From the IMG/VR virus record IMGVR_UViG_644736364_000004: 41,621 bases of DNA, one strand, 5' to 3'. Made by a program: the position numbers and the translations under genes. Origin of the DNA: a virus. Its lineage: Duplodnaviria > Heunggongvirae > Uroviricota > Caudoviricetes. The notes below the pieces were generated by a model. That model saw only the letters and a list, made by a program, of their open reading frames with translations, had not been told where the DNA came from and did not search any database. The first letter of the stretch is position 1, and each line of letters begins with the position of its first letter. This document shows positions 1,144 to 27,126 of the stretch, piece by piece.

Positions 1144-1369
1144 CAGCGATTATCCTTTGGAGTTTTGGGTTTGCGTTTATTGGGAGTTGCGGTTCTGCAA
1201 GCGTTCCTACAAAACGGGAATTTCGGTCAATCATCCAGTAGCGACCAACTTTTATAGCGGGTGGGGCCATCATTTTCCCTTGCGCGTATTTTTTCAGAAC
1301 TCGCTCACTTGGTGCTAAGTCCCCAAATTCTTCTTTAGCCCAGTCCTGTAAAGTGATTAGTCGAGACAT
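1133..1369 (-). CDS. xis: Excisionase-like small DNA-binding protein, 78 aa
   Basis: Immediately upstream of int and overlapping its start by 11 nt; strong SD (AGAGGAGGACAA) before the ATG; size and position typical of Xis. The protein itself is not lambda Xis. Confidence 0.55.
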   Translation of the reverse strand: MSRLITLQDWAKEEFGDLAPSERVLKKYAQGKMMAPPAIKVGRYWMIDRNSRFVGTLAEPQLPINANPKLQRIIADGC

Positions 1370-1508
1370 TTGTCCTCCTCTTAGCTGCTGAGGGAGTTTG
1401 TGACCGATATATCTGACATGATATTAAGCTCATGGCAGGTACATCTCTTGACTGGTCATAGAGATAAATTTAATGCTGAGAAATGCAGTATTGAATTTAT
1501 CAATTTTT

Positions 1509-1748
1509 CTATTTCCTGCGCATGTCACGTAACTTCTTAATGTGTTCTGCCGTTTCGATCTCTTCTGCTATCCGATCTGCATCAGCTTTATTCACAGGTT
1601 CAAAGTCATGATTAAAGCGGAACATGCTGGCGATACATGTTCTGCCTTTTCGGATGTAGTGAACTTTGTTGTGGGTAGAACGCAGGATTTTGCAGGGAGT
1701 GCCGTGGTGGTCGACGTACCAGGTGTTAGGGTCAATCACTCTGAACAT
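1509..1748 (-). CDS. Hypothetical protein, 79 aa
   Basis: ORF track; co-oriented with the leftward early operon; no family recognised. Confidence 0.4.
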   Translation of the reverse strand: MFRVIDPNTWYVDHHGTPCKILRSTHNKVHYIRKGRTCIASMFRFNHDFEPVNKADADRIAEEIETAEHIKKLRDMRRK

Positions 1749-2061
1749 TCTTGACCTTGTGTTGTGCGGATTGATATTCAGTGCTGATATTCACCTTTAT
1801 AGCGAACACCTTTACCGGTTTATCGCCAAAGTGCGGATGTGTGATTGTCTTCACTTCATATCCGTCATACGGAACATCAATTCTGCGACTGGAATCGTCG
1901 CGCTTCGGATATCCCTTTGTGATAATCAGGCGGTCATATTCCCGGAACATAATTCGCTTATTCCAGTAGTCATTACACAAGCGATACTCTTCCGTTTTCT
2001 CTCCGCGAATCATGGCATCGAAGTATTCACTTTTAACAGCAAGTTGCAGGTTAGCCATCAC
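1732..2061 (-). CDS. Hypothetical protein, 109 aa, possible ASCH/PUA-like fold
   Basis: ORF track; N-terminus (LAVKSEYFDAMIRGEKTEEYR) resembles the start of ASCH-domain proteins. Weak, by-eye assignment. Confidence 0.4.
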   Translation of the reverse strand: MMANLQLAVKSEYFDAMIRGEKTEEYRLCNDYWNKRIMFREYDRLIITKGYPKRDDSSRRIDVPYDGYEVKTITHPHFGDKPVKVFAIKVNISTEYQSAQHKVKNVQSD

Positions 2062-2279
2062 TTAATCCCCCTTTGTTTGCGGATAAGCTCCAGATCTTGC
2101 TGGCAACTGGCGCAAGTCCGACAACCCTGAACGGCCAGGCGTCTTCGTTCATCTATCGGATCGCCACACTCACAACAATGAGTGGCAGATACAGCCAGGT
2201 AGTTCAGGCGGCGCATTTTTATTGCTGTGTTGCGCTGTAATTCTTCTATTTCTGATGCTGAATCAATGATGTCTGCCAT
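2058..2279 (-). CDS. TraR/DksA-family C4-type zinc-finger protein, 73 aa
   Basis: Two CxxC pairs (HCCECGD … CRTCASCQ) in a small prophage protein, a common early-region accessory gene. Confidence 0.6.
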   Translation of the reverse strand: MADIIDSASEIEELQRNTAIKMRRLNYLAVSATHCCECGDPIDERRRLAVQGCRTCASCQQDLELIRKQRGIK

Positions 2280-2330
2280 CTTTCATTAATCCCTGAACTG
2301 TTGGTTAATACGCTTGAGGGTGAATGCGAA

Positions 2331-2357
2331 CAATAAAAAAGGAGCCTGTAGCTCCCT
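2331..2357 (-). terminator. Rho-independent terminator candidate on the leftward transcript
   Basis: On the minus strand, hairpin GGAGC-TACAG-GCTCC (plus 2341-2355) followed by TTTTTTATTG. Confidence 0.45.
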
Positions 2358-2472
2358 GATAATTTTGCTTTTCATGTTCATCGTTCCTTAAAGACGCCGT
2401 TTAACATGCCGATTGCCAGGCTTAAATGAGTCGGTGTGAATCCCTTCAGCGTTACCGTTTCGCGGTGCTTCT

Positions 2473-2655
2473 TCAGTACGCTACGGCAAATGTCATTGAC
2501 GTTTTTGGAAACTGCTGTCTGACTTTTTTGATTTCAGAATTAGCCTGACGGGCAATGCTGCGAAGGGCGTTTTCTTGCTGAGGTGTCACTGAACAAGCCC
2601 CATGTCGGCAAGCATAAGCACACAGAATATGAAGCCCGCTGCCAGAAAAATGCAT
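2473..2655 (-). CDS. Small hypothetical protein, 60 aa
   Basis: ORF track with ATG start; position equivalent to the small orf61/orf63 genes left of exo in lambda. Weak. Confidence 0.3.
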   Translation of the reverse strand: MHFSGSGLHILCAYACRHGACSVTPQQENALRSIARQANSEIKKVRQQFPKTSMTFAVAY

Positions 2656-2665
2656 TCAGTGGTTG

Positions 2666-2857
2666 TCATACCTGGTCTCTCTCATCTGCTTCTGCTTTCG
2701 CCACCATCATTTCCAGCTTTTGTGAAAGGGATGTGGCTAACGTATGAAATTCTTCGTCTGTTTCTGCTGGTATTGGCACAAACCTGACTCCAATTTGAGC
2801 AAGGCTATGTGCCAAATCAATACTCGTTCTTAACTCAACAGGAGATGCTTTGTGCAT
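2666..2857 (-). CDS. Small early protein, 63 aa (lambda orf63-like)
   Basis: Size and position left of exo match lambda orf63; sequence identity is from recall only. Confidence 0.45.
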   Translation of the reverse strand: MHKASPVELRTSIDLAHSLAQIGVRFVPIPAETDEEFHTLATSLSQKLEMMVAKAEADERDQV

Positions 2858-3018
2858 ACCGCCCCCCGTTTATTATTTATCTCCTCAGCCAGCCGCTGGG
2901 CTTTCAGCGGATTTCGGATAACAGAAAGACCGTGAAATACCCAGCCTCGCTTTGTAACGGAGTAGACGAAAGTGATCGCGCCTACCCGGATATTATCGTG
3001 AGGATGGGTCATCGCCAT
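2830..3018 (-). CDS. Small early protein, 62 aa (lambda orf60a-like)
   Basis: Directly downstream of exo in the same orientation, as orf60a is in lambda. Confidence 0.45.
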
Positions 3019-3689
3019 TGCTCTCCAAATACAAAACCAATTTCAGCCAGTGCTTCGTCCATTTTTTCGATGAACTCCGGCACCATCTCGTCAAAACTCG
3101 CCATGTACTTTTCATCCCGCTCAACCACGACATAATGCAGGCCTTCACGCTTCATTCGTGGGTCATAGTTGGCAAAGTACCAGGCATCTTTTCGTGTCAC
3201 CCACATGCTGTACTGCACCTGGGCCATGTAAGCCGACTTTATGGCCTCGAAACCACCGAGCCGGAACTTCATGAAATCCCGGGAGGTAAACGGGCATTTC
3301 AGCTCAAGGCCATTGCCGTCACTGCATAAACCATCGGGAGAGCAGGCGGTGCGCATACTTTCGTCGCGATAGATGATCGGGGATTCAGTAACATTCACGC
3401 CGGAAGTGAATTCAAACAGGGTTCTGGCGTCGTTCTCGTACTGTTTTCCCCACGCCAGCGCCTTAGCATTAACTTCCGGAGCCACACCGGTGCAAACCTC
3501 AGCCAGCAGGGTGTGGAAGTAGGACATTTTCATGTCAGGCCACTTCTTTCCTGAGCGGGGCTTTGCTATCACGTTGTGAACTTCTGAAGCGGTGATGACG
3601 CCGAGCCGTAATTTGTGCCATGCATCATCCCCCTGTTCGACAGCTCTCACGTCGATCCCGGTACGCTGCAGGATAATGTCCGGTGTCAT
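3009..3689 (-). CDS. exo: Lambda exonuclease (Red-alpha), 226 aa
   Basis: Translation [50 protein letters not shown]… is essentially the lambda Exo sequence as I recall it. Confidence 0.95.
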
Positions 3690-4471
3690 GCTGCCACCTT
3701 CTGCTCAGTGGCTTTCTGTTTCAGGAATCCAAGAGCTTTCACTGCTTCGGCCTGTGTCAGTTCTGACGATGCGCGAATGTCGCGGCGAAATATCTGGGAA
3801 CAGAGCGGCAATAAGTCGTCATCCCATGTTTTGTCCAGGGCAATCAGCAGAGTGTTAATCTCCTGCATGGTTTCATCGTTAACCGGAGTGATGTCGCGTT
3901 CCGGCTGACGTTCTGCAGTGTATGCGGTATTTTCGACAATGCGCTCGGCTTCATCCTTGTCATAGATACCAGCAAATCCGAAGGCCAGACGGGCACACTG
4001 AATCATGGCTTTATGCCGTAACATCCGTTTGGGATGCGACTGCCACGGCCCCGTGATTTCTCTGCCTTCGCGGGTTTTGAATGGTTCGCGGCGGCATTCA
4101 TCCATCCACTCGGTAACGCAGATCGGATGATTGCGGTCTTTGCGGTAAATCCGGCATGTACATGATTCATTGTCCTGCTCAAAGTCCATACCATCAAACT
4201 GCTGGTTTTCATTGATGATGCGGGACCAGCCATCAACGCCCACCACCGGAACAATGCCGTTCTGCTTATCAGGGAAGGCGTAAATTTCTTTCGTCCACGG
4301 ATTAAGGCCGTACTGGTTGGCGACGATCAACAATGCGATGAACTGCGCATCGCTGGCATCACCTTTAAATGCCGTCTGGCGAAGAGTGGTGATCAGTTCC
4401 TGTGGGTCGACAGAATCCATGCCGACACGTTCAGCCAGCTTCCCTGCCAGCGTTGCGAGTGCTGTACTCAT
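3686..4471 (-). CDS. bet: Bet single-strand annealing protein (Red-beta), 261 aa
   Basis: Translation [59 protein letters not shown]… matches lambda Bet; start overlaps the exo start region (ATGA-type junction). Confidence 0.95.
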
Positions 4472-4476
4472 CCGTT

Positions 4477-4773
4477 TTATACCTCTGAATCAATATCAGC
4501 CTGATGGTGAGCAATGGTTTCAACTATGTACCGGATGTGTTCTGCCATGCGCTCCTGAAACTCAACATCGTCATCAAACGCACGGGTAATGGCTTTTTTG
4601 CTGGCCCCGTGGCGTTGTAAATGATCGATGCATAGCGATTCAAACAGGTGCTGGGGCAGGCCTTTTTCCATGTCGTCTGCCAGTTCTGCCTCTTTCTCTT
4701 CACGGGCGATCTGCTGGTAGTGACGCGCCCAGCTCTGAGCCTCAAGACGATCCTGAATGTAATAAGCGTTCAT
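4477..4773 (-). CDS. gam: Gam (RecBCD inhibitor), 98-aa short form
   Basis: Translation [44 protein letters not shown]… matches lambda GamS. Confidence 0.9.
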
Positions 4774-4848
4774 GGCTGAACTCCTGAAAATGGCTGTGAA
4801 AATATCGCCCGCGAAATGCCAGGCTGATTAGGAAAACAGGAAAGGGGG

Positions 4849-4992
4849 TTAGTGAATGCTTTTGCTTGATCTCAGTTTCAGTATTAATATCCATTTTTTA
4901 TAAGCGTCGACGGCCTCACGAAACATCTTTTCATCGCCAATAAAAGTGGCGATAGTGAATTTAGTCTGGATAGCCATAATTGTTTGATCCAT
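4849..4992 (-). CDS. kil: Kil (host cell-division inhibitor), 47 aa
   Basis: In-frame ATG at 4992 gives [47 protein letters not shown], matching lambda Kil; the track ORF 4849-5118 is an upstream extension of this frame. Confidence 0.7.
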
Positions 4993-5125
4993 TTTTTGGG
5001 ACTCCTGGCTGATTAAGTATGTCGATAAGGCGTTTCCATCCGTCACGTAATTTACGGGTGATTCGTTCAAGTAAAGATTCGGAAGGGCAGCCAGCAACAG
5101 GCCACCCTGCAATGGCATATTGCAT
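4961..5125 (-). CDS. cIII: CIII (FtsH inhibitor that stabilises CII), 54 aa
   Basis: Hand translation of the minus strand from the ATG at 5125: [54 protein letters not shown], stop TAA at 4961-4963. Too short for the ORF track; overlaps kil as in lambda. Confidence 0.7.
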   Translation of the reverse strand: MQYAIAGWPVAGCPSESLLERITRKLRDGWKRLIDILNQPGVPKNGSNNYGYPD

Positions 5126-5197
5126 GGTGTGCTCCTTATTTATACATAACGAAAAACGCCTCGAGTGAAGCGTAATTGGTATGCGGTAACGCCGCGC

Positions 5198-5566
5198 TCA
5201 GGCGGCCTTGATAGTCATATCATCTGAATCAAATATTCCTGATGTATCGATATCGGTAATTCTTATTCCTTCACTACCATCCATTGGAGGCCATCCTTCC
5301 TGACCATTTCCATCATTCCAGTCGAACTCACACACAACACCATATGCATTTAAGTCGCTTGAAATTGCTATAAGCAGAGCATGTTGCGCCAGCATGATTA
5401 ATACAGCATTTAATACAGAGCCGTGTTTATTGAGTCGGTATTCAGAGTCTGACCAGAAATTATTAATCTGGTGAAGTTTTTCCTCTGTCATTACGTCATG
5501 GTCAATTTCAATTTCTATTGATGCTTTCCAGTCGTAATCAATGATGTATTTTTTGATGTTTGACAT
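5198..5566 (-). CDS. ea10: Ea10-like early protein, 122 aa
   Basis: Position between cIII and ral and length match lambda ea10. Confidence 0.6.
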   Translation of the reverse strand: MSNIKKYIIDYDWKASIEIEIDHDVMTEEKLHQINNFWSDSEYRLNKHGSVLNAVLIMLAQHALLIAISSDLNAYGVVCEFDWNDGNGQEGWPPMDGSEGIRITDIDTSGIFDSDDMTIKAA

Positions 5567-5748
5567 CTATTCATATCCTCATAGATAAAAAATCGCCCTC
5601 ACACTGGAGGGCAAAGAAGATTTCCAATAATCAGAACAAGTCGGCTCCTGTTTAGTTACGAGCGACATTGCTCCGTGTATTCACTCGTTGGAATGAATAC
5701 ACAGTGCAGTGTTTATTCTGTTATTTATGCCAAAAATAAAGGCCACTA

Positions 5749-5949
5749 TCAGGCAGCTTTGTTGTTCTGTTTACCAAGTTCTCTGGCAATCATTGCCGTC
5801 GTTCGTATTGCCCATTTATCGACATATTTCCCATCTTCCATTACAGGAAACATTTCTTCAGGCTTAACCATGCATTCCGATTGCAGCTTGCATCCATTGC
5901 ATCGTTTGAATTGTCCACACCATTGATTTGTATCAATAGTCGTAGTCAT
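5749..5949 (-). CDS. ral: Ral (restriction alleviation), 66 aa
   Basis: Translation MTTTIDTNQWCGQFKRCNGCKLQSECMVKPEEMFPVMEDGKYVDKWAIRTTAMIARELGKQNNKAA matches lambda Ral. Confidence 0.8.
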   Translation of the reverse strand: MTTTIDTNQWCGQFKRCNGCKLQSECMVKPEEMFPVMEDGKYVDKWAIRTTAMIARELGKQNNKAA

Positions 5950-6019
5950 ACGGATAGTCCTGGTATTGTTCCATCACATCTTGAGGATGCTCTTCGAACT
6001 CTTCAAATTCTTCTTCCAT
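5933..6019 (-). CDS. Small acidic ORF, 28 aa (lambda orf28 position)
   Basis: Hand translation MEEEFEEFEEHPQDVMEQYQDYPYDYDY; overlaps the ral start. Very short, so weak. Confidence 0.3.
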   Translation of the reverse strand: MEEEFEEFEEHPQDVMEQYQDYPYDYDY

Positions 6020-6162
6020 ATATCACCTTAAATAGTGGATTGCGGTAGTAAAGATTGTGCCTGTCTTTTAACCACATCAGGCTCGGTGGTTCTCGTGTAC
6101 CCCTACAACGAGAAATCGGATAAACTCTATTCACCCCTACAGAGAGCAAAAGAGAAACGCCG

Positions 6163-6744
6163 ATGAACAACTCATGGTGGCAGGAACTAATGCATTTTTT
6201 CCTGCAAGGAATGACACTTAAACAGTTGATTCATATGCTAATCATCCTGATCATATTGATTATTGTTATGCCGGTAAGCGTAAAAGAATGGATAAACCTG
6301 CATAATCCAGAAATCCTTCCTCATTACTGGATGTATTACATCCTGTTGTTTTGCGTTAGCTATGTGCTTAACGGCGTTGTTAATTCCGCTTATCACGCTG
6401 TGACTGAAAGAATTGAGGTATTCGCTGCTCAGAAGCGCAAATCTAAAGAAGAAAAATATGTGCAAGATTTGTTTGATTCGTTAACTCTTGGAGAAAGAGC
6501 GTATTTGGCATTCGCTGTAGCCGCTAATAACCAGCTACAAACGGAAAAGGGCGCTCATGAATCAATTTCATTGCTCAAAAAAGGACTCCTCGTTCGAAGG
6601 CCTCCTGCTGTTGGATATCCTGATACCGACCGTTTCGTTATCCCTGAAAGCTATAGACATGAGTGCTACATTAGGTTTGCCGGGAAGGCAGACAGCCTTA
6701 TGGATGAACTTATCGCTCAGGATAAGCATGGCAAAAACAAGTAA
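6163..6744 (+). CDS. sieB: SieB superinfection exclusion protein, 193 aa
   Basis: Translation MNNSWWQELMHFFLQGMTLKQLIHMLIILIILIIVMPVSVKEW… matches lambda SieB; rightward gene embedded in the leftward operon, as in lambda. Confidence 0.8.
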   Translation: MNNSWWQELMHFFLQGMTLKQLIHMLIILIILIIVMPVSVKEWINLHNPEILPHYWMYYILLFCVSYVLNGVVNSAYHAVTERIEVFAAQKRKSKEEKYVQDLFDSLTLGERAYLAFAVAANNQLQTEKGAHESISLLKKGLLVRRPPAVGYPDTDRFVIPESYRHECYIRFAGKADSLMDELIAQDKHGKNK

Positions 6745-6760
6745 TTAGCAAATGAATTTA

Positions 6761-7033
6761 TCATCTCGCCGTCAGTTGTTTTGATTTCCGGTAGCCTGCC
6801 GCGTAAAGAGCTACGTTCGGAAGACAAGTTGAACCTTCATATTTTCTGGTCAACGTTGTCAGAGTTATCACTTCTGCTCTCATTGCTGGTTTGAGCTTGC
6901 ATTGCAAGACCACTCGTGAAGGGGTTGGCCTGTGTAGCTTGTCGGAGCTGATCGCCTCCTGACTTTGCAGATTTGCGCGACGAGCTCTACGGCGAGAAGC
7001 TGCGGTGCCTTTAAATTCTGTTTTTCTGGACAT
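6761..7033 (-). CDS. N: N-like transcription antiterminator, 90 aa
   Basis: Start at the in-frame ATG at 7033, preceded by GGGAGG with 5-nt spacing; N-terminal arginine-rich motif (GTAASRRRARRANLQ) of the N family; sits between pL/nutL and the early genes. Not lambda N itself. Confidence 0.65.
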   Translation of the reverse strand: MSRKTEFKGTAASRRRARRANLQSQEAISSDKLHRPTPSRVVLQCKLKPAMRAEVITLTTLTRKYEGSTCLPNVALYAAGYRKSKQLTAR

Positions 7034-7131
7034 GGATTCCTCCCGAATAAACTTTGGCGATGCAATCTCGAAGCTCCTCCTGAGACGGTTGCTTCGGCAT
7101 TGCATCCCACAGCTTATGTGGTTGGGTGATC

Positions 7132-7177
7132 TGGCTTTTCAGCCACGTAGTCGAGAGTCGACGTTGTTTAAAGAGCC
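7132..7177 (-). promoter_or_regulatory. nutL candidate (boxA-like GGCTCTTTA plus boxB-like hairpin UGGCU-GAAA-AGCCA)
   Basis: Minus strand reads GGCTCTTTAAACAACG…GGCTGAAAAGCC; a nearly parallel arrangement (CGCTCTTTG…CGCTGAAAAGCG) occurs on the plus strand after cro at 9813-9858. Confidence 0.5.
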
Positions 7178-7270
7178 TGCCAGTCTGTTCCATTTGGCTT
7201 CCAGCGTCCTGCTGACGGTTAAATAGTACGATATGTACTTTACAAGATCAATACAATTTGTTGTAAGTTG
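7178..7270 (-). promoter_or_regulatory. pL/oL interval (candidate -35 TTGATC, 17-nt spacer, -10 TACTAT, with operator-like repeats)
   Basis: Minus strand contains TTGATCTTGTAAAGTACATATCGTACTAT and a TACAA-N4-TTGTA inverted repeat; the motifs AAAGTACATAT and TTGTATT recur in the cI-cro intergenic region. Confidence 0.4.
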
Positions 7271-7437
7271 GCGTGGTTTTTTATAACGCTTTGTATTTAA
7301 TAGTGTTGTTTTTTAGCGTGGATGTATTGCCTCGGCGATGTAAGGAGAGATCAGAATTGCGTGGTTTAGTGGGTTGCATCTATTTATTTTTCAATAAATA
7401 TAATTGGTTATGTGTTTTTAGGTGGGCGAACGTGAGG

Positions 7438-7464
7438 CAAAGAAAACCCGGCGCTGAGGCCGGG
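7438..7464 (-). terminator. Rho-independent terminator closing the cI operon
   Basis: On the minus strand, stem CCCGGC-CUCAGC-GCCGGG (plus 7447-7464) followed by UUUUCUUUG, beginning 6 nt after the stop of the 250-codon gene. Confidence 0.6.
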
Positions 7465-7469
7465 TTGTA

Positions 7470-8222
7470 TTATGCTGCAAGTCTCTTAACCCAAGTCTCT
7501 CTTTTGGAGAATGGTAGAACTTGGCTTGATTCATGGAAGAGTAAGGAGAGTTGTTGCATTTGATCACCAATTGCTTCGCTGTCTATAACAACAAATCTGT
7601 TGTTATACTCCTCACTTGAAGCTTTAAGATCAATTAGTTTCCCAAGCAATGAGTAAGCACTATTCCAGCTTCCTCCGTGTTTCACGCTTGATGTAAAAAC
7701 GTATTTAGGTATGTCGGTTTTTATTGTTACAGGGACGGTAATTTGATGTCCACTCAAGCCATATACGTTTTCACGAAGAGAAAGTGCGTCTCTAAGCTCT
7801 GTGTGATATAGATAATCAATAACCATACTTTCAAACTTTTCAGCTTGAACTGGCTGATACCAGTCTAACGACAAAGTTGATGCGAGTATACCAGCTCTAA
7901 TTATGTTCGATGTAATCGCACCGACATCCTTTTCTGTTGCCCAAGCAATGATTTCTCCTCGAGCATTGAGTTCTGCGCCTTCTTTAAGCAGTAATTGTCG
8001 TATCTCATCAAGTCGTTTTTTGGTAAGCGAGATCCCTCTTGCCTCCATATTCATTAAGGCATCGCATCTGTCACTAACTAAATACCTACCATTGACTTCA
8101 CGGATAAAGGCACCGACATGCTCTCCATCATCACAGTAAGTGAATGGACTGATAATTCTCAAGGTCTTGCCTATTGGATGGCATTCGAAACCTAGTTGTG
8201 AGATCACTGTTGAGCACATCAT
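7470..8222 (-). CDS. Uncharacterised protein, 250 aa; distal gene of the cassette downstream of cI (rexB-equivalent position)
   Basis: ATGATG start whose first codon overlaps the TGA of the upstream 185-codon ORF; followed by a terminator; AT-rich by inspection; no transmembrane segments and no family recognised. Confidence 0.65.
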   Translation of the reverse strand: MMCSTVISQLGFECHPIGKTLRIISPFTYCDDGEHVGAFIREVNGRYLVSDRCDALMNMEARGISLTKKRLDEIRQLLLKEGAELNARGEIIAWATEKDVGAITSNIIRAGILASTLSLDWYQPVQAEKFESMVIDYLYHTELRDALSLRENVYGLSGHQITVPVTIKTDIPKYVFTSSVKHGGSWNSAYSLLGKLIDLKASSEEYNNRFVVIDSEAIGDQMQQLSLLFHESSQVLPFSKRETWVKRLAA

Positions 8223-8776
8223 ATTCCAAACCCCATTTGCCCCGACTCATCTTCAAGCGGTAAAGGTATTCTCCCAGAGTAAGTTATGTTCAGATGTTTA
8301 CAGAAGTAATTCCAATACCCTACCAGGTCATCTGGGTTTATGTCATCTTCGATTGGAAACGCTATTCTATCACTATAGTATCCAGCTTCTTCATAGTATA
8401 CATGGTAGTGAGCACCGTAAATGATATCTTGGTACTTCGGATGATCGACCTTGTAACTATTCGTGTGTTTGTCAAAGTGATAGGTATCTACCGCGAAAAC
8501 CCTCTTGTTATGATAGAAAGCAATAATATTTATTTTAGGGTAAGAAATCGGGTCATCAGGTTCTGAATCCTGATCTGGTTTCCATTTCAGTTCAAACTTT
8601 AGCCCTTGTATAGGTATACAATCCTCATCCAAGGGGATGATATGGGCTTGTAGCCACATATCAGAGCGACTTGGTTTCTGTTTCCATTTAACGCCAGAAA
8701 AGTTAACTATTTTTTTACAATAAAGTACTTTATCAACTTCTACTTGGCTTGGCTGATAATCATCTATTTTTGCCAA
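8219..8776 (-). CDS. Uncharacterised protein, 185 aa; proximal gene of the cassette downstream of cI (rexA-equivalent position)
   Basis: ORF starts at a TTG directly after an in-frame stop, 39 nt downstream of the cI stop; His/Tyr/Asp-rich; no family recognised. The start codon is uncertain. Confidence 0.55.
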   Translation of the reverse strand: MAKIDDYQPSQVEVDKVLYCKKIVNFSGVKWKQKPSRSDMWLQAHIIPLDEDCIPIQGLKFELKWKPDQDSEPDDPISYPKINIIAFYHNKRVFAVDTYHFDKHTNSYKVDHPKYQDIIYGAHYHVYYEEAGYYSDRIAFPIEDDINPDDLVGYWNYFCKHLNITYSGRIPLPLEDESGQMGFGI

Positions 8777-17881: not shown

Positions 17882-18175
17882 TTATTGTGAGCAATACACA
17901 CGCGCTTCCAGCGGAGTATAAATGCCTAAAGTAATAAAACCGAGCAATCCATTTACGAATGTTTGCTGGGTTTCTGTTTTAACAACATTTTCTGCACCAC
18001 CACAAATTTTTGCTGCATCGACAGTTTTCTTCTGCCCAATTCCCGAAACGAAGAAATGATGGGTGATGGTTTCCTTTGGTGTTACTGCTGTAGGTTTGTT
18101 TCCAACAGTAAACGTCTGTTGAGCACATCCTGTAATAAGCATTGCCAGAGCGGCAGAAAACAACATTTTTTTCAT
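17882..18175 (-). CDS. bor: Bor lipoprotein (serum-resistance type), 97 aa
   Basis: From the ATG at 18175: MKKMLFSAALAMLITGCAQQTFTVGNKPTAVTPKETITHHFF… matches lambda Bor; lipobox LITGC. Confidence 0.85.
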   Translation of the reverse strand: MKKMLFSAALAMLITGCAQQTFTVGNKPTAVTPKETITHHFFVSGIGQKKTVDAAKICGGAENVVKTETQQTFVNGLLGFITLGIYTPLEARVYCSQ

Positions 18176-18655
18176 CTTATTATCCTGCATTGTTAAAAAC
18201 GGCAGAATCCTATGTGACAACAATTAAACGATAGTTAAATGGATTGATGAAAATTAAAACTACACAGGTGGGCTCAGACTATTGGAGGAAGTTGGGGACA
18301 CTCAGAATCCTGTGGAATGAAATAAACCGGTCTATCCGTCCATTACCCTTTTAGCTGCGCTGTATCGTCGCCGTATTCCCGCATTAACCATGACCGTAGC
18401 CCGACGGGGAATTCCTTCTGCGTGAGTGTGCGGGAATAATTAAAAACGATGCACACCGGGTTTTTACCGCGTTAATGATTCGCGGGTTTATCCCGGTGCG
18501 ATGGTGGAAGAAACAGGAAGCTGTATTACAGAAAGTGCTACTACTGTATCCCGATGCGATGTATGTAATGTGAGTCAGATAATGGCACAGGATGTGGTGA
18601 TGTGGCAGTCTGGAACACAGGATATATTGTCAGAATAAGACCCGTAGGAATAAAA

Positions 18656-18982
18656 ATGAAAAGACGCCTTTTACTACTTTTTCTGTTATCTGTCCTGGCA
18701 GTGGGATGCTCGCAGCAAAAAGCTGATGAGCCCCGGCAATTAGTGACGGTGTATCCACGATATCCGGAATATGCTGCAGCAAATTATATCAAGGGGCTGG
18801 TTGAGGTTAAGTTCGATATTGGTGCTGATGGGACTGTGACACGGATCGTTTTTCTCCGCTCAGAGCCTCATAATTTGTTTCGTGATGAAGTGGTGAAGGC
18901 CATGGCGAAATGGCGATTTGAAAAGAATCGCCCCTGTCAGGGAGTGAAGAGACAATTTATCTTTACGCCGTCACGTCCTTGA
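18656..18982 (+). CDS. Putative envelope lipoprotein with TonB C-terminal-like domain, 108 aa
   Basis: ATG at 18656 preceded by AGGA; signal peptide with lipobox (LAVGCSQ). The TonB-C-like call is by eye. Confidence 0.5.
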   Translation: MKRRLLLLFLLSVLAVGCSQQKADEPRQLVTVYPRYPEYAAANYIKGLVEVKFDIGADGTVTRIVFLRSEPHNLFRDEVVKAMAKWRFEKNRPCQGVKRQFIFTPSRP

Positions 18983-19345
18983 TGCTTCCAGGTAGAGAGG
19001 GGCTGGAAGCAGGAGAAAAATGAAAGAGCCAGCGGTTATATTTTTGTCATGGCTGACGAGGAATGATGGAAGAAGGCGTTGTATGCCACACAACGCCTCA
19101 CTGTTCATTTCTTCTTTTTCTCTGGTGGAACCCGATGAATAAGAGTTGCACTGGTTTCCGATGAGATGGCGATATACTCGGGCAAAGTATGCTGGCAGTT
19201 TTCCAACTGGTCAAAAATACCTGCTCTCGTCTGTTGCAATGCCTGCAGCATGCGGCGGCAATGCGCCTTGCTTTTACTAACCATCTTTCCTTCCTCTATC
19301 AGTCGCTGCGTGAACTCATCATGGAATACCAGGTAAATGCGGATG

Positions 19346-19594
19346 TTATCGGTTTTGGCTACGCAGCATAGTACAAAACGGACAGGTGCATCCCGGGACG
19401 GGGGAGGCGTCACATGTCCCTGTGATGGTTGTTCCGGGTAATGTACTGTGTGGGGCATAAAAATGTCCGATAATTTTACTTTCTACCGCAGTTAGTTGAT
19501 TCGTTGGTCCTGGTAGCACATTGGGCGAGGATTTAAATGCCAGGCAACTGAAGGATGATGTCGCAAGGGAGATAGCGAGAATATTTCTGATTTT
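19346..19594 (-). CDS. Small hypothetical secreted protein, 82 aa
   Basis: In-frame ATG at 19594 gives signal-peptide-like MKIRNILAISLATSSFSCLA; overlaps another minus-strand ORF (19105-19458), so the gene model is uncertain. Confidence 0.3.
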   Translation of the reverse strand, partial: KIRNILAISLATSSFSCLAFKSSPNVLPGPTNQLTAVESKIIGHFYAPHSTLPGTTITGTCDASPVPGCTCPFCTMLRSQNR

Positions 19595-19745
19595 CATTTG
19601 ATGATGCCTCTGTGTGAAATGACGGTAAACGACGCACTTGTGCCGGCACATAATAGCAAGCACCATAATAGATCAGATTCGATTCTTGCTGTAAGTGATA
19701 ATTATTCTCGTTTTCGGGTCCTTTCCGTCGATCCAACAGGTTACG

Positions 19746-19757
19746 GGGCGGCGACCT
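19746..19757 (+). other. cos: cosN: 12-nt cohesive-end sequence GGGCGGCGACCT
   Basis: Sequence …CAGGTTACG|GGGCGGCGACCTCGCGGTTTTTCACTATTTATGAAAATTTT… matches the lambda cos junction as recalled; about 180 bp upstream of the terminase small-subunit gene. Confidence 0.65.
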
Positions 19758-19794
19758 CGCGGTTTTTCACTATTTATGAAAATTTTTCAGGGAA

Positions 19795-19920
19795 AATCGT
19801 GTCGGTACTTCTCGAATATAACTTTTTGTTTTTTTTAATATTGCATCCGTAAAGGTCCGACATGAAAGTGTCCGAAAATGCCTTTTTCTGGCGTTTTCAT
19901 GTCGGGCCTTGTATTTGATA
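19795..19920. promoter_or_regulatory. cosB-like region with repeated terminase-binding candidates
   Basis: Repeats GTCCGACATGAAA (19855-19867) and its near inverse TTTCATGTCGGGC (19895-19907), plus GTCGGTAC at 19801; these differ from the lambda R-site consensus. Confidence 0.4.
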
Positions 19921-19933
19921 ATGGGTTGTTTTC

Positions 19934-20482
19934 ATGAAGGTTAATAAAAAGAGGCTTGCCGAAATTTTCAACGTGGACCCGCGGACGATTGAACGCTGGC
20001 AGTCTCAGGGACTCCCTTGCGCCTCCAAAGGTAGTAAGGGCATTGAATCTGTATTTGATACTGCCATGGCAATTCAGTGGTATGCGCAGAGGGAAACTGA
20101 TATCGAAAACGAAAAGCTCCGCAAAGAACTGGCCGATTTGCGTGCGGCAGCGGAGTCAGATTTACAACCCGGCACCATTGACTATGAACGCTACCGGCTC
20201 ACAAAAGCGCAGGCAGATGCGCAGGAACTGAAAAATGCCCGTGAAGACGGAGTAGTGCTGGAAACTGAACTGTTTACCTTCATTCTGCAACGTGTGGCAC
20301 AGGAGATTTCGGGGATACTTGTGCGTGTGCCGTTGACATTACAGCGTAAATATCCGGACATTTCACCATCACACCTTGATGTGGTGAAAACTGAAATCGC
20401 GAAAGCCTCCAATGTTGCAGCTAAGGCCGGTGAAAACGTGGGCGGGTGGATCGATGATTTCAGACGCGCAGAAGGCAGCTAA
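19934..20482 (+). CDS. nu1: Terminase small subunit (Nu1 / phage-21 gp1 type), 182 aa
   Basis: [28 protein letters not shown]… aligns with lambda Nu1 (MEVNKKQLADIF…) with clear divergence. Confidence 0.9.
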
Positions 20483-22382: not shown

Positions 22383-22572
22383 ACTGCAGGCGCTGCGTCA
22401 GGCGCGCCTTGATTTATTAACCGGTAAACGGGTGGTGTCTGTCCAGAAAGATGGTCGCAGAATTGAATATACGGCGGCTTCTCTGGATGAGCTTAACCGG
22501 GCGATCAATGATGCGGAGTCGGTACTGGGGACAACCCGGTGTCGCCGTCGTCCGCTGGGAGTGAGGTTATGA
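22366..22572 (+). CDS. W: Head-tail joining protein W, 68 aa
   Basis: [43 protein letters not shown]… resembles lambda gpW. Confidence 0.8.
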   Translation: MVTVAELQALRQARLDLLTGKRVVSVQKDGRRIEYTAASLDELNRAINDAESVLGTTRCRRRPLGVRL

Positions 22573-24161
22573 AACGAACGCCTGTCCTGATTGATGTGAA
22601 CGGCGTTCCGCTTCGTGAGAGTCTCAGCTACAACGGGGGCGGTGCAGGATTTGGCGGGCAAATGGCTGAGTGGTTGCCACCGGCGCAGAGTGCCGATGCG
22701 GCCCTGCTGCCCGCGTTGCGTCTGGGGAATGCCCGGGCAGATGATCTGGTGCGCAATAACGGAATAGCGGCTAATGCGGTGGCTCTGCATAAGGATCACA
22801 TTGTCGGGCATATGTTTCTGATCAGCTACCGTCCGAACTGGCGCTGGCTGGGGATGCGGGAGACCGCAGCAAAAAGCTTTGTCGATGAGGTGGAGGCGGC
22901 CTGGTCGGAATACGCCGAAGGGATGTTTGGCGAGATCGACGTGGAAGGAAAACGCACGTTCACGGAATTTATCCGTGAAGGTGTGGGCGTTCATGCGTTT
23001 AACGGCGAAATCTTTGTGCAGCCGGTCTGGGATACGGAAACCACGCAGTTATTCCGTACGCGTTTTAAAGCCGTGAGTCCGAAACGGGTGGACACGCCTG
23101 GACACGGTATGGGGAACCGTTTTCTGCGGGCCGGTGTGGAGGTCGATCGATATGGCCGTGCCGTCGCGTACCATATCTGTGAGGATGATTTTCCGTTCTC
23201 TGGTAGTGGACGATGGGAACGGATCCCGCGTGAACTTCCCACCGGGCGTCCGGCCATGCTGCATATTTTCGAGCCGGTGGAGGACGGGCAGACCCGTGGG
23301 GCTAATCAGTTTTACAGCGTCATGGAACGGCTGAAGATGCTCGATTCCCTGCAGGCAACACAGCTTCAGTCGGCCATAGTGAAGGCGATGTATGCAGCGA
23401 CGATTGAAAGTGAACTTGATACCGAAAAGGCCTTTGAATATATCGCCGGCGCGCCACAGGAGCAGAAGGATAATCCGCTTATTAATATTCTGGAGAAGTT
23501 TTCCAGCTGGTATGACACGAATAACGTGACACTGGGCGGTGTCAAAATTCCGCACCTTTTCCCTGGTGATGATCTGAAACTACAGACTGCGCAGGATTCA
23601 GACAATGGATTTTCTGCGCTTGAACAGGCGCTGCTGCGGTATATCGCCGCCGGTCTTGGCGTTTCCTACGAACAGTTGTCCCGTGATTACTCGAAGGTCA
23701 GTTACTCAAGTGCCCGCGCCTCCGCCAATGAGTCGTGGCGCTATTTTATGGGGCGGCGAAAATTTATTGCGGCCCGGCTGGCCACGCAGATGTTTTCCTG
23801 CTGGCTGGAAGAGGCACTTCTTCGGGGGATTATTCGTCCGCCACGGGCACGTTTTGATTTTTATCAGGCGCGATCAGCCTGGTCACGGGCAGAGTGGATT
23901 GGTGCCGGAAGAATGGCCATTGACGGGCTCAAGGAAGTCCAGGAATCAGTGATGCGCATTGAGGCCGGACTGAGCACGTATGAGAAAGAGCTGGCGCTGA
24001 TGGGCGAGGATTATCAGGACATTTTCCGCCAGCAGGTCAGGGAATCTGCTGAGCGGCAAAAAGCCGGACTCTCACGTCCGGTGTGGATAGAGCAGGCGTA
24101 TCAGCAGCAGATAGCGGAGAGTCGCAGGCCGGAAGAGGAGACAACACCACGTGAGACGTAA
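22569..24161 (+). CDS. B: Portal protein (gpB)
   Basis: From MKRTPVLIDVNGVPLRESLSYNGGGAGFGGQMAEWLPPAQSADAALLPALRLGN… onward matches lambda gpB. Confidence 0.9.
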   Translation: MKRTPVLIDVNGVPLRESLSYNGGGAGFGGQMAEWLPPAQSADAALLPALRLGNARADDLVRNNGIAANAVALHKDHIVGHMFLISYRPNWRWLGMRETAAKSFVDEVEAAWSEYAEGMFGEIDVEGKRTFTEFIREGVGVHAFNGEIFVQPVWDTETTQLFRTRFKAVSPKRVDTPGHGMGNRFLRAGVEVDRYGRAVAYHICEDDFPFSGSGRWERIPRELPTGRPAMLHIFEPVEDGQTRGANQFYSVMERLKMLDSLQATQLQSAIVKAMYAATIESELDTEKAFEYIAGAPQEQKDNPLINILEKFSSWYDTNNVTLGGVKIPHLFPGDDLKLQTAQDSDNGFSALEQALLRYIAAGLGVSYEQLSRDYSKVSYSSARASANESWRYFMGRRKFIAARLATQMFSCWLEEALLRGIIRPPRARFDFYQARSAWSRAEWIGAGRMAIDGLKEVQESVMRIEAGLSTYEKELALMGEDYQDIFRQQVRESAERQKAGLSRPVWIEQAYQQQIAESRRPEEETTPRET

Positions 24162-25656
24162 TCTTTCACACATTATTGCCGCAGCATTCAATGAACCGCT
24201 GCTTCTGGAGCCCGCCTATGCGCGGGTTTTCTTTTGCGCGCTCGGGCGCGAGATGGGGGCAGCAAGTCTTTCGGTACCACAACAGCAGGTACAGTTTGAT
24301 GCTCCCGGAATGCTGGCTGAAACGGACGAGTACATGGCCGGAGGTAAACGACCGGCCCGTGTTTACCGGGTGGTGAACGGTATTGCTGTACTGCCGGTGA
24401 CCGGCACGCTGGTGCACCGGCTGGGTGGTATGCGGCCATTTTCCGGAATGACAGGCTATGACGGCATTGTCGCCTGTCTTCAGCAGGCAATGGCGGATAG
24501 CCAGGTGCGGGGCGTACTGCTGGACATTGACAGTCCGGGCGGGCAGGCCGCCGGCGCGTTTGACTGCGCTGACATGATTTACCGCCTCCGTCAGCAGAAG
24601 CCGGTCTGGGCACTGTGCAATGACACGGCCTGTTCTGCAGCCATGCTGCTGGCGTCGGCCTGCTCCCGACGGCTGGTTACCCAGACATCCCGTATCGGCT
24701 CCATTGGCGTGATGATGAGCCATGTCAGCTATGCCGGTCATCTGGCGCAGGCCGGTGTGGATATCACGCTGATTTACTCAGGGGCGCACAAGGTGGATGG
24801 CAATCAGTTTGAAGCGTTGCCGGCAGAGGTTCGCCAGGACATGCAGCAGCGGATTGATGCGGCGCGCCGGATGTTTGCCGAAAAAGTGGCGATGTATACC
24901 GGTCTGTCTGTTGATGCCGTCACGGGAACAGAGGCTGCCGTTTTTGAAGGTCAGTCCGGCATTGAGGCCGGGCTGGCGGATGAATTAATCAATGCGTCGG
25001 ATGCCATCAGTGTGATGGCCACGGCGCTGAACAGTAATGTCAGAGGAGGCACTATGCCGCAATTAACTGCAACGGAAGCCGCCGCGCAGGAGAACCAGCG
25101 AGTGATGGGGATCCTGACATGCCAGGAAGCGAAAGGACGTGAACAGCTTGCCACGATGCTGGCAGGACAACAGGGCATGAGCGTTGAACAGGCCCGGGCG
25201 ATTCTGGCCGCGGCGGCACCGCAGCAGCCGGTGGCATCCACGCAGAGTGAAGCCGATCGCATTATGGTGTGTGAAGAAGCGAACGGTCGTGAACAACTGG
25301 CGGCAACGCTGGCGGCGATGCCGGAGATGACGGTGGAAAAAGCCCGCCCGATCCTGGCTGCTTCACCGCAGGCGGATGCCGGACCATCACTCCGTGATCA
25401 GATCATGGCACTGGATGAGGCAAAAGGGGCTGAGGCGCAGGCTGAACAGCTGGCTGCCTGCCCGGGAATGACAGTGGAGAGCGCCCGGGCTGTGCTGGCT
25501 GCGGGATCAGGTAAGGCAGAACCGGTCTCTGCATCCACAACCGCCATGTTTGAACATTTCATGGCGAACCATTCACCGGCAGCGGTACAGGGTGGCGTGG
25601 CACAGACGTCAGCAGACGGTGATGCGGACGTGAAAATGCTCATGGCCATGCCATGA
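24151..25656 (+). CDS. C: Head maturation protease/scaffold gpC (S49 family), 501 aa
   Basis: Homology to lambda gpC throughout; apparent GTG start overlapping the B stop; longer than lambda C because of an internal triplication. Confidence 0.85.
   Translation: MRRNLSHIIAAAFNEPLLLEPAYARVFFCALGREMGAASLSVPQQQVQFDAPGMLAETDEYMAGGKRPARVYRVVNGIAVLPVTGTLVHRLGGMRPFSGMTGYDGIVACLQQAMADSQVRGVLLDIDSPGGQAAGAFDCADMIYRLRQQKPVWALCNDTACSAAMLLASACSRRLVTQTSRIGSIGVMMSHVSYAGHLAQAGVDITLIYSGAHKVDGNQFEALPAEVRQDMQQRIDAARRMFAEKVAMYTGLSVDAVTGTEAAVFEGQSGIEAGLADELINASDAISVMATALNSNVRGGTMPQLTATEAAAQENQRVMGILTCQEAKGREQLATMLAGQQGMSVEQARAILAAAAPQQPVASTQSEADRIMVCEEANGREQLAATLAAMPEMTVEKARPILAASPQADAGPSLRDQIMALDEAKGAEAQAEQLAACPGMTVESARAVLAAGSGKAEPVSASTTAMFEHFMANHSPAAVQGGVAQTSADGDADVKMLMAMP
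25054..25656 (+). CDS. nu3: Nu3-like scaffold protein, in-frame nested start within C
   Basis: In-frame ATG at 25054 preceded by AGAGGAGG with 4-nt spacing; lambda makes Nu3 from an in-frame internal start in C. Confidence 0.4.
   Translation: MPQLTATEAAAQENQRVMGILTCQEAKGREQLATMLAGQQGMSVEQARAILAAAAPQQPVASTQSEADRIMVCEEANGREQLAATLAAMPEMTVEKARPILAASPQADAGPSLRDQIMALDEAKGAEAQAEQLAACPGMTVESARAVLAAGSGKAEPVSASTTAMFEHFMANHSPAAVQGGVAQTSADGDADVKMLMAMP
25102..25512 (+). repeat. Three imperfect tandem coding repeats (~40 residues each) within C/Nu3
   Basis: Copies VMGILTCQEAKGREQLATMLAGQQGMSVEQARAILAAAAP / RIMVCEEANGREQLAATLAAMPEMTVEKARPILAASPQAD / QIMALDEAKGAEAQAEQLAACPGMTVESARAVLAAGSG at residues 318-357, 370-409 and 417-454. 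Confidence 0.6.
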
Positions 25657-25692: not shown

Positions 25693-26040
25693 ATGGTGAC
25701 GAAAACCATCACTGAACAGCGTGCGGAAGTACGTATTTTTGCCGGTAATGATCCGGCTCATACCGCCACAGGCAGCAGCGGGATTTCCTCGCCAACACCG
25801 GCACTGACGCCCCTGATGCTGGATGAAGCCACCGGGAAACTGGTGGTCTGGGACGGACAGAAAGCCGGTAGTGCGGTTGGCATACTGGTACTGCCGCTTG
25901 AAGGCACAGAGACGGCGCTGACGTATTACAAGTCGGGAACCTTTGCGACGGAGGCAATCCACTGGCCTGAAAGTGTGGATGAACACAAAAAGGCCAACGC
26001 CTTTGCCGGCAGTGCCCTGAGTCACGCGGCGCTGCCGTAA
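25693..26040 (+). CDS. D: Head decoration protein D, 115 aa
   Basis: …DPAHTATGSSG…TPLMLDEATGKLVVWDG…TYYKSGTF… aligns with lambda gpD. Confidence 0.85.
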   Translation: MVTKTITEQRAEVRIFAGNDPAHTATGSSGISSPTPALTPLMLDEATGKLVVWDGQKAGSAVGILVLPLEGTETALTYYKSGTFATEAIHWPESVDEHKKANAFAGSALSHAALP

Positions 26041-26097: not shown

Positions 26098-27126
26098 ATG
26101 GGATTGTTTACGACCCGCCAGTTACTCGGTTATACCGAACAAAAAGTTAAATTTCGTGCGCTGTTTCTGGAGCTGTTTTTCCGCCGTACGGTGAATTTCC
26201 ATACCGAAGAGGTGATGCTGGACAAAATTACCGGAAAAACGCCGGTGGCGGCCTATGTCTCCCCGGTTGTTGAAGGAAAAGTGCTGCGTCATCGTGGTGG
26301 TGAAACCCGCGTGTTGCGTCCGGGCTACGTCAAGCCGAAACACGAATTTAATTACCAGCAGGCGGTTGAGCGCCTTCCTGGTGAAGATCCATCTCAACTG
26401 AATGATCCGGCTTACCGCCGTCTGCGTATCATTACCGATAACCTCAAACAGGAAGAGCACGCGATTGTCCAGGTGGAAGAAATGCAGGCGGTAAATGCTG
26501 TGTTGTATGGCAAATACACCATGGAAGGAGACCAGTTCGAGAAAATTGAGGTCGATTTTGGCAGGTCGACGAAGAATAACATCACTCAGGGTAGTGGTAA
26601 GGAGTGGTCAAAACAGGATCGTGACACGTTCGATCCTACACATGATATTGACCTCTACTGCGACCAGGCCAGCGGTCTTGTGAATATTGCCATTATGGAC
26701 GGTACCGTCTGGCGTCTTCTGAATGGTTTTAAGCTGTTCCGCGAAAAACTGGATACCCGTCGCGGTTCAAATTCTCAACTCGAAACGGCAGTGAAAGATC
26801 TGGGCGCAGTGGTGTCCTTCAAGGGGTATTACGGCGATCTGGCCATTGTGGTGGCGAAAACGTCTTATATAGCAGAAGACGGTATCGAAAAACGTTATCT
26901 TCCAGATGGCATGCTGGTTCTGGGGAATACTGCTGCAGATGGGATCCGTTGTTACGGTGCCATTCAGGATGCTCAGGCGTTGTCCGAAGGTGTGGTGGCC
27001 TCTTCCCGTTATCCGAAACACTGGCTGACGGTAGGGGATCCCGCCCGTGAATTTACCATGACGCAGTCCGCGCCGCTGATGGTGTTGCCGGACCCGGATG
27101 AGTTTGTGGTGGTACAGGTGAAATAA
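26098..27126 (+). CDS. E: Major capsid protein E, 342 aa
   Basis: Strong similarity to lambda gpE over the full length (…GYVKPKHEFNYQQ… MQAVNAVLYGKYTMEGDQF… GSNSQLETAVKDLG…). Confidence 0.95.
   Translation: MGLFTTRQLLGYTEQKVKFRALFLELFFRRTVNFHTEEVMLDKITGKTPVAAYVSPVVEGKVLRHRGGETRVLRPGYVKPKHEFNYQQAVERLPGEDPSQLNDPAYRRLRIITDNLKQEEHAIVQVEEMQAVNAVLYGKYTMEGDQFEKIEVDFGRSTKNNITQGSGKEWSKQDRDTFDPTHDIDLYCDQASGLVNIAIMDGTVWRLLNGFKLFREKLDTRRGSNSQLETAVKDLGAVVSFKGYYGDLAIVVAKTSYIAEDGIEKRYLPDGMLVLGNTAADGIRCYGAIQDAQALSEGVVASSRYPKHWLTVGDPAREFTMTQSAPLMVLPDPDEFVVVQVK

Follow-up and report, generated by a model that had tools for sequence, protein, structure and literature searches.

The closest described counterparts of the locus studied here are genes C and Nu3 of phage lambda (NC_001416 4418-5737), where an S49 protease is followed by a scaffold tail, and genes 5 and 6 of phage 21, deposited in a 1993 record as the "Bacteriophage 21 head gene operon" (M81255.1) and in 2021 within a complete genome (OL657228.1). 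We take M81255 to go with the study of the phage 21 prohead genes that Smith and Feiss published in 1993. Here, we analyzed a stretch of 41,621 nucleotides of viral DNA (IMG/VR record IMGVR_UViG_644736364_000004; hereafter, the window) that carries a gene pair of this type, and we focused on a module of ~45 amino acids that stands in three tandem copies (T1, T2, and T3; Table 1) in the C-terminal, scaffold part of its prohead protease/scaffold gene. The DNA of this gene was 100% identical over 1506 nucleotides (nt) to phage 21 gene 5 in both records, with the same GTG start, internal ribosome-binding site, ATG, and Tri boxes, and with no difference within the gene. We are nearly certain that the identity and anatomy of the locus are correctly assigned: it is a head gene pair 5/6 of the phage 21 type and corresponds to lambda C/Nu3.

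Much of this anatomy was annotated before. The feature table of M81255.1 starts a nested coding sequence (CDS), "gene 6," at what is window position 25054, and lists three repeat_region features, "Tri1 box," "Tri box," and "Tri3 box," with the note "function unknown; putative." A putative ribosome-binding site upstream of gene 6 is annotated in M81255.1 and OL657228.1, the latter labeling the two CDSs "capsid protease/scaffolding protein" and "scaffolding protein," and phage 21 gp5 has a Swiss-Prot entry that the Gifsy-1 record quotes as "Contains: Scaffold protein GP6." Because M81255.1 already carries three annotated repeat regions, the triplication is not a discovery: it has been in public annotation for three decades, the feature is very common, and its detection in this window carries little weight, rediscovering a GenBank feature of a classical lambdoid phage. 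In the literature searched, we found neither a paper citing the phage 21 head-operon sequence paper nor the term "Tri box." What our survey adds is a predicted three-helix fold for the module, a copy number that ranges from one to four, purifying selection on all copies, an association with two protease families, and a constant candidate partner, the gpE-family capsid protein. The Tri boxes thereby become a domain that is defined and can be tested in lambda-like scaffolds, a class whose contacts with the capsid remain poorly described.

The repeat was clear in the protein sequence. Pairwise local BLOSUM62 scores among T1 to T3 were 101, 87, and 93, against means of 25 to 27 (SD about 5) for composition-preserving shuffles (z = 12 to 16). 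A hidden Markov model (HMM) of the module matched the three residue ranges given in Table 1 with 72 to 82 bits each, and three single-module PHROG profiles, phrog_8399 ("head scaffolding protein"), phrog_8940, and phrog_17040, each matched the gene 6 product (gp6) in three separate stretches. These results confirmed the three imperfect tandem copies that a preliminary description of the window had proposed. The conserved motif of the module, ...IMGIL.C.EAKGRE..A..LA..PGMTV..AR.ILAA..., occurs three times in the phage 21-type gene and once in lambda. In the DNA, the copies shared 52 to 59% identity with a longest in-register exact run of 8 nt; Tandem Repeats Finder detected no DNA repeat in the region, and another DNA repeat search gave only short chance pairs. 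The repeat is thus visible at the protein level only. Pfam gave no significant match within the final 200 residues, and neither Pfam nor NCBIfam has a model of the module. A helix-hairpin-helix motif (Pfam HHH, PF00633), matching residues 427-450 only, was rejected at 13 bits (E = 0.097) against a gathering threshold of 24 bits.

An Ala/Gln/Glu-rich region such as this one, for which many database homologs are partial sequences at contig ends, calls for a comparison with two trivial explanations, namely, an assembly artefact and a resemblance that arose by chance in Ala-rich sequence of low complexity. The preliminary description had itself warned of a collapse or expansion hazard in assembly, a concern that did not hold up: with so little nucleotide identity, the copies offer an assembler nothing to collapse, and the full region is found in many records. 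The sequence is identical in the 1993 record, the 2021 complete genome, and other phage records, with the whole gene at full length in 19 phage records, that of 1993 included. The 603-nt triple-repeat region was present at a coverage of at least 80% in 1863 of 5426 complete Escherichia coli genomes, i.e., in about a third (2919 places in 1869 genomes), and the full-coverage E. coli matches listed each spanned about 603 nt, one of them 602. Since, in addition, the z values were obtained against shuffles of the same composition and the copies keep their positional correspondence in Gifsy-1, both an artefact and chance are effectively excluded. The truncated proteins from contig ends that made up most of the gp6 homolog search are usable for spotting variants but poor for counting, and they would be explained more simply by genomes that contain several nearly identical lambdoid prophages (up to 5 places in one genome) than by the repeat.

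The strong internal ribosome-binding site before an in-frame ATG, likewise pointed out in the preliminary description, was found as described. In a scan of the whole of gene 5, AGGAGG-N4-ATG at position 25054 (codon 302) was the sole strong Shine-Dalgarno sequence with an in-frame start. The same geometry is common to phage 21, lambda (ATG at 5342), Gifsy-1, and PhiR12_1, with different neighboring residues in the latter two, and a four-copy relative has the internal start in the form AAGGAG-N6-ATG. This conservation, together with the annotation of gene 6 in M81255.1 (as putative) and OL657228.1, supports a nested scaffold product from a real internal start and, with it, the C/Nu3-type arrangement that had been suggested. 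The lambda start aligns exactly with that of the window gene (Met309 with Met302). The lambda C protein has its module at residues 357-401, with scores of 126, 108, and 87 against T1, T2, and T3; once this module was masked, the next best match in lambda C was at shuffle level, i.e., there is no second copy. The single lambda copy given in the preliminary description was therefore correct, and the outcome that it had set beforehand as speaking against it, three copies in lambda, came out negative. As a separate observation, RefSeq places the lambda nu3 start at Met239 (5132, 201 amino acids), while the conserved Shine-Dalgarno sequence and ATG lie at 5342 (Met309, 131 amino acids); the lambda and phage 21 records therefore use nonequivalent scaffold starts.

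Structure prediction pointed to a small, repeated fold. For the whole 200-residue gp6 (alignment of 9 sequences), AlphaFold2 yielded a mean predicted local distance difference test score (pLDDT) of 69, with three helices per module at a pLDDT of about 77 to 85, low-confidence linkers, and a tail that was mostly disordered (pLDDT 40 to 61). One module alone (alignment of 18 sequences) reached a pLDDT of 92.9 and a predicted template modeling (TM) score of 0.70, with helices at module positions 2-10, 19-26, and 33-42, and we regard the module as a confidently predicted three-helix bundle. Among the BFVD viral models, good matches were limited to three other S49 prohead proteases, one of them from a cyanophage (TM 0.81 to 0.89 on the query), two of which superpose at a root mean square deviation of about 1 Å. 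A Foldseek search and a Protein Data Bank sequence search returned no match. Structural look-alikes of the predicted bundle are small protein-binding domains, from which we draw no homology. The coat-binding helix-turn-helix of P22-type scaffolding proteins was considered as an identity for the module and rejected on sequence and fold similarity.

To describe the distribution of the module, we searched a profile built from 18 diverse modules against 1.84 billion representative proteins, which gave matches in 1591 clusters (50% identity) at E ≤ 0.001. Among the best 150 of these clusters, near-complete copies numbered one in 135, two in 7, and three in 3. A sample of 120 IMG/VR stretches, chosen by a degenerate DNA pattern for EAKGRE.LA and biased both by this pattern, which favors motif-keeping copies, and by its many enterobacterial proviruses, contained 46, 5, 44, and 7 cases with one to four copies, respectively. 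Single copies are found in lambda and in P0089-P0092, two in P0018 and in P0022 (an in-register T1/T2 hybrid), three in the phage 21 and Gifsy-1 types, and four in P0026, which was confirmed in the DNA and has an exact period of 46 amino acids. An intermediate form with 2.5 copies, a 482-residue protein, lies in a prophage of the complete genome of E. coli WP3-W18-ESBL-08 (NZ_AP022003.1 3009071-3010519), in which a 19-residue in-frame deletion removed helices 2 and 3 of T2 (junction GREQ/LAAAP); the same half-T2 form occurs in protein clusters P0009 and P0011 (53 members).

The arrangement of the copies bears on when they arose. In every multicopy enterobacterial protein, the first copy is the lambda-like one, and for both T1 and T2 of phage 21, the nearest match is the copy at the same position in Gifsy-1, P0030, P0019, P0076, and P0094; T3 behaves likewise, but narrowly so in Gifsy-1 and P0094. 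This same-position similarity means that the triplication is most likely older than the divergence of these phages, predating, as far as such sequence comparisons can tell, the split between the lineages of phage 21 in E. coli and Gifsy-1 in Salmonella. In the four-copy lineage (L004 1-1043; IMG/VR loci L022, L032, L040, L047, L062, L077, and L114), the properties of the repeat suggest a separate and more recent expansion, and the distant two-copy proteins P0136, P0111, P0176, and P0139, with two T1-like copies each, look like independent duplications.

All three phage 21 copies are maintained as protein. Ratios of nonsynonymous to synonymous substitution (dN/dS) between the window and Gifsy-1, which are approximate because dS is near saturation, were 0.13 for the protease domain, 0.08 for T1, 0.11 for T2, 0.27 for T3, and 0.33 for the tail. 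Between T1, T2, and T3 within the gene, the nonsynonymous proportion of differences (pN) was 0.31 to 0.43 versus a near-saturated synonymous proportion (pS) of 0.65 to 0.73. Judged by these measures, all three copies are under purifying selection, T3 being the most relaxed. A role of the Tri boxes as elements of the DNA or RNA, such as CII-binding sites, can be judged from the same data; it is suggested by their naming as boxes in M81255.1 and by two matches to a CII-site pattern within the stretch: OL657228.1 annotates two "transcription factor CII" sites by the pattern ttgynnnnnnttgy, at 25059-25072 and 25293-25306 on the minus strand. This pattern occurs 5 times in the window versus 9.8 times expected by chance, and since it is no commoner than chance, the annotated CII sites are probably not meaningful. 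With pN far below pS between the copies, it is the protein sequence that has been kept and not the DNA, in line with the negative Tandem Repeats Finder result, and a role as nucleic acid sites is effectively refuted.

The varying copy number raises another possibility, namely, that the modules are protease docking or cleavage cassettes, by which the scaffold would be cut into exit pieces of ~5 kDa, or mere length spacers, with the number of copies being nearly neutral. Copy numbers of one to four among relatives with otherwise similar head gene clusters would fit such a role, as would the similar AA(A/S)PQ-type linker at the end of each module and the persistence of the half-T2 deletion in a complete genome. 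However, a spacer would not need purifying selection as strong as that which preserves surface-type residues, such as those of the EAKGRE turn, in each of the copies and across a very wide phylogenetic distance. A protease-specific docking site is further argued against by the association of the module with two protease families. Peptidase_S49 was present in 53 of 54 long module-bearing representatives, and nine IMG/VR module proteins showed no similarity to the phage 21 protease (L017, L028, L054, L060, L078, L102, L105, L120, and L128); the three of these that were scanned were all ClpP-type (PF00574) prohead proteases with a single module near the C terminus. The module is hence not tied to one protease family, and we consider the cassette or spacer role distinctly improbable.

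A more constant companion of the module was the capsid gene. At the IMG/VR loci where a large downstream open reading frame (ORF) could be picked, 69 of 71 such ORFs fell into two sequence clusters, the remaining two being one decoration-like and one wrong-frame ORF. Phage_cap_E was matched both by the representative of the distant cluster (L017) and by the window capsid protein, which is related to the main cluster. At the ClpP-type loci, the next large ORF, where pickable, belonged to the cluster represented by L017. In lambda, two-hybrid interactions have been reported for Nu3-E, Nu3-Nu3, and Nu3-C (PMC3224144). Because of the downstream-ORF pattern and these interactions, the most likely conserved partner of the module is the gpE-family capsid protein.

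The reported Nu3-Nu3 and C-Nu3 interactions would equally suit a model in which the modules are self-association units, acting between scaffolds or between the scaffold and the protease tail, while the C-terminal tail (FEHFM...LMAMP) is the capsid-binding site; the protease would then be co-packaged, and extra copies would alter the order of the oligomer rather than the capsid valency. The tail pattern after the last module is conserved among 21-type, Gifsy-type, and lambda proteins. In P22, phi29, 80alpha, and herpesviruses, moreover, it is the very C-terminal end of the scaffold that holds the capsid-binding element. Yet the tail evolves faster than any of the modules and is predicted to be largely disordered, and across the 1591 clusters and two protease families, it is the module that is conserved and not the tail. 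We therefore judge self-association to be unlikely as the main function of the modules, though with a real chance of being right.

The explanation that we favor, and that we consider as a whole slightly more probable than not to be correct, combines these elements as follows. One reading frame yields the full-length S49 prohead protease with its scaffold tail, and the internal ribosome-binding site and ATG would yield the 200-residue scaffold protein gp6. The units would fold independently as small three-helix bundles on flexible Pro/Gln/Ala/Ser linkers. The extra copies most likely arose through tandem duplication on the downstream side of the lambda-like copy, at a time when phage 21 and Gifsy-1 had not yet diverged, and purifying selection has kept all three since. 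Each unit would serve as a protein-binding module, such that the scaffold and the protease sharing its tail gain up to three attachment points in the assembling procapsid, probably on the gpE-family major capsid protein, after which the protease would cut the chain and let the pieces leave. For the specific role of the module as a multivalent capsid-binding unit of the scaffold, we put the chances a little short of even. The broader proposal that the ~45-residue unit is an autonomous, portable module coupling S49-type and ClpP-type proteases and nested scaffolds to gpE-family capsids, with its copy number (one to four, changed independently in several lineages) tuning the valency, is tentative and rather doubtful.

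Several observations weigh against the multivalent capsid-binding account. Some natural variants carry two copies and others have lost half of T2, one of the latter in a complete genome, so that some copies may be dispensable. T3 of the phage 21 lineage has an Ala in place of the Arg that is nearly invariant in the EAKGRE turn. The capsids of phage 21 and lambda are similar and their capsid proteins nearly the same size (342 amino acids in the window), so a different shell does not require three copies. The co-occurrence with gpE-family genes may merely reflect co-inheritance of the head gene block, and the translation of gene 6 from its ATG in phage 21 is annotated in M81255.1 as "putative" only. 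Lambda gpNu3, furthermore, is reportedly called intrinsically disordered in the title of a paper, which sits uneasily with the confident predicted fold. For lambda-like head assembly, the partner of the module and the variation of its copy number thus form a problem of modest size that can be tested.

Table 1. Features of the gene 5/6 region in window coordinates; residue numbers refer to the gene 5 protein.
Feature	Coordinates	Strand	Details
Portal gene (gene 4, lambda B equivalent)	22539-24161	+	Upstream; ORF list, annotations
Gene 5 (lambda C equivalent), prohead protease/scaffold	24151-25656	+	501 amino acids, GTG start; ORF list and 100% DNA identity
Peptidase_S49 domain, residues 146-293	24586-25029	+	Pfam PF01343, E = 3.7e-35
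Internal Shine-Dalgarno sequence AGGAGG	25044-25049	+	4 nt before the gene 6 ATG; inside Gly-Gly codons of gene 5
Nested gene 6 (lambda Nu3 equivalent), gp6	25054-25656	+	200 amino acids, in the frame of gene 5; annotated AAA32344.1, UMO75421.1
Module copy 1 (T1), residues 311-358	25081-25224	+	Orthologous to the lone lambda module; GenBank "Tri1 box" = 25121-25224
Module copy 2 (T2), residues 364-407	25240-25371	+	GenBank "Tri box" = 25261-25371
Module copy 3 (T3), residues 411-454	25381-25512	+	GenBank "Tri3 box" = 25402-25515
C-terminal tail, residues 455-501	25513-25653	+	Weakly predicted helix FEHFMAN, then disordered end ...KMLMAMP
Head decoration gene (shp, lambda D equivalent)	25693-26040	+	Downstream; ORF list, annotations
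Major capsid protein gene 7 (lambda E family)	26098-27126	+	342 amino acids; Pfam Phage_cap_E, E = 4.6e-64

By ORF order, annotations, and Pfam matches, genes 5 and 6 lie between a lambda-family portal gene, whose end is overlapped by the GTG start of gene 5, and the decoration and gpE-family capsid genes. The gene 5 protein also matched TIGR00706 (SppA_dom) with E = 1e-31; that the match stayed under the equivalog cut-off is what a phage paralogue would show. The gene has an overall identity of 95% to that of phage PhiR12_1, with differences at 21 of the 60 positions in 25471-25530 (T3 helix 3 and the next linker) and at 9 of the 60 positions in 24991-25050, just upstream of the internal start; these patches look like small mosaic, gene-conversion-like exchanges. 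The gene copy of Escherichia phage 204576 (CP025907.1 583-2082), at 96% DNA identity, contains 16 stops in the gene frame, which could be either sequencing-error frameshifts or the mark of a decayed prophage gene. Two chimeric module proteins are probably gene-call or assembly artefacts: P0125, in which an apparently tail tape-measure-type N terminus (judged by eye) is joined to a full lambda C, and P0046, in which a DPPY methylase-like N terminus is joined to a Gifsy-type scaffold tail. As for the window as a whole, its early half (1-20000), with an integrase, an OmpD/NmpC-type porin, a Bet/RecT-type recombinase, and an O-like replication gene, was 100% identical to phage PhiR63_2, and its late half was nearest to ev017, PhiR57_1, and phage 21 (99.3 to 99.4%; phage 21 itself, 99.3%). 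The window is thus not phage 21 itself but a lambdoid prophage of mosaic composition, with its genes in the integrated order.

Compared with the described systems, the window gene shares with lambda C/Nu3 the same gene order, a protease part of ~54% amino acid identity, and a module clearly orthologous to T1, but it has three modules where lambda has one, its protein is 501 rather than 439 residues long, and it does not have the extra Ser/Thr/Ala/Asp-rich segment of ~32 residues that lies between the internal start and the module in lambda. The prohead protease of Gifsy-1 (STM2605.Gifsy1) and other S49 head proteases of Salmonella and E. coli prophages carry three modules in the same order with the same internal start; Gifsy-1 differs by an identity of about 60% in the scaffold part, by a short C-terminal extension, and by a T3 that keeps the GRE turn lost in phage 21. 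The four-copy E. coli prophage variant (P0026) has the same type of protease/scaffold gene followed by decoration and gpE-family capsid genes, but its repeat has an exact period of 138 nt, with copies 2 to 4 being 75 to 76% identical in DNA, more than the phage 21 copies. By analogy only, the predicted module resembles the C-terminal coat-binding helix-turn-helix of the P22 scaffold, similar in phi29 and 80alpha, which is a small helical protein-binding element on an otherwise flexible scaffold. If the module is indeed portable and tunes valency, then phage 21, with three copies, and lambda, with one, would form a natural pair for studying scaffold valency in procapsid assembly.

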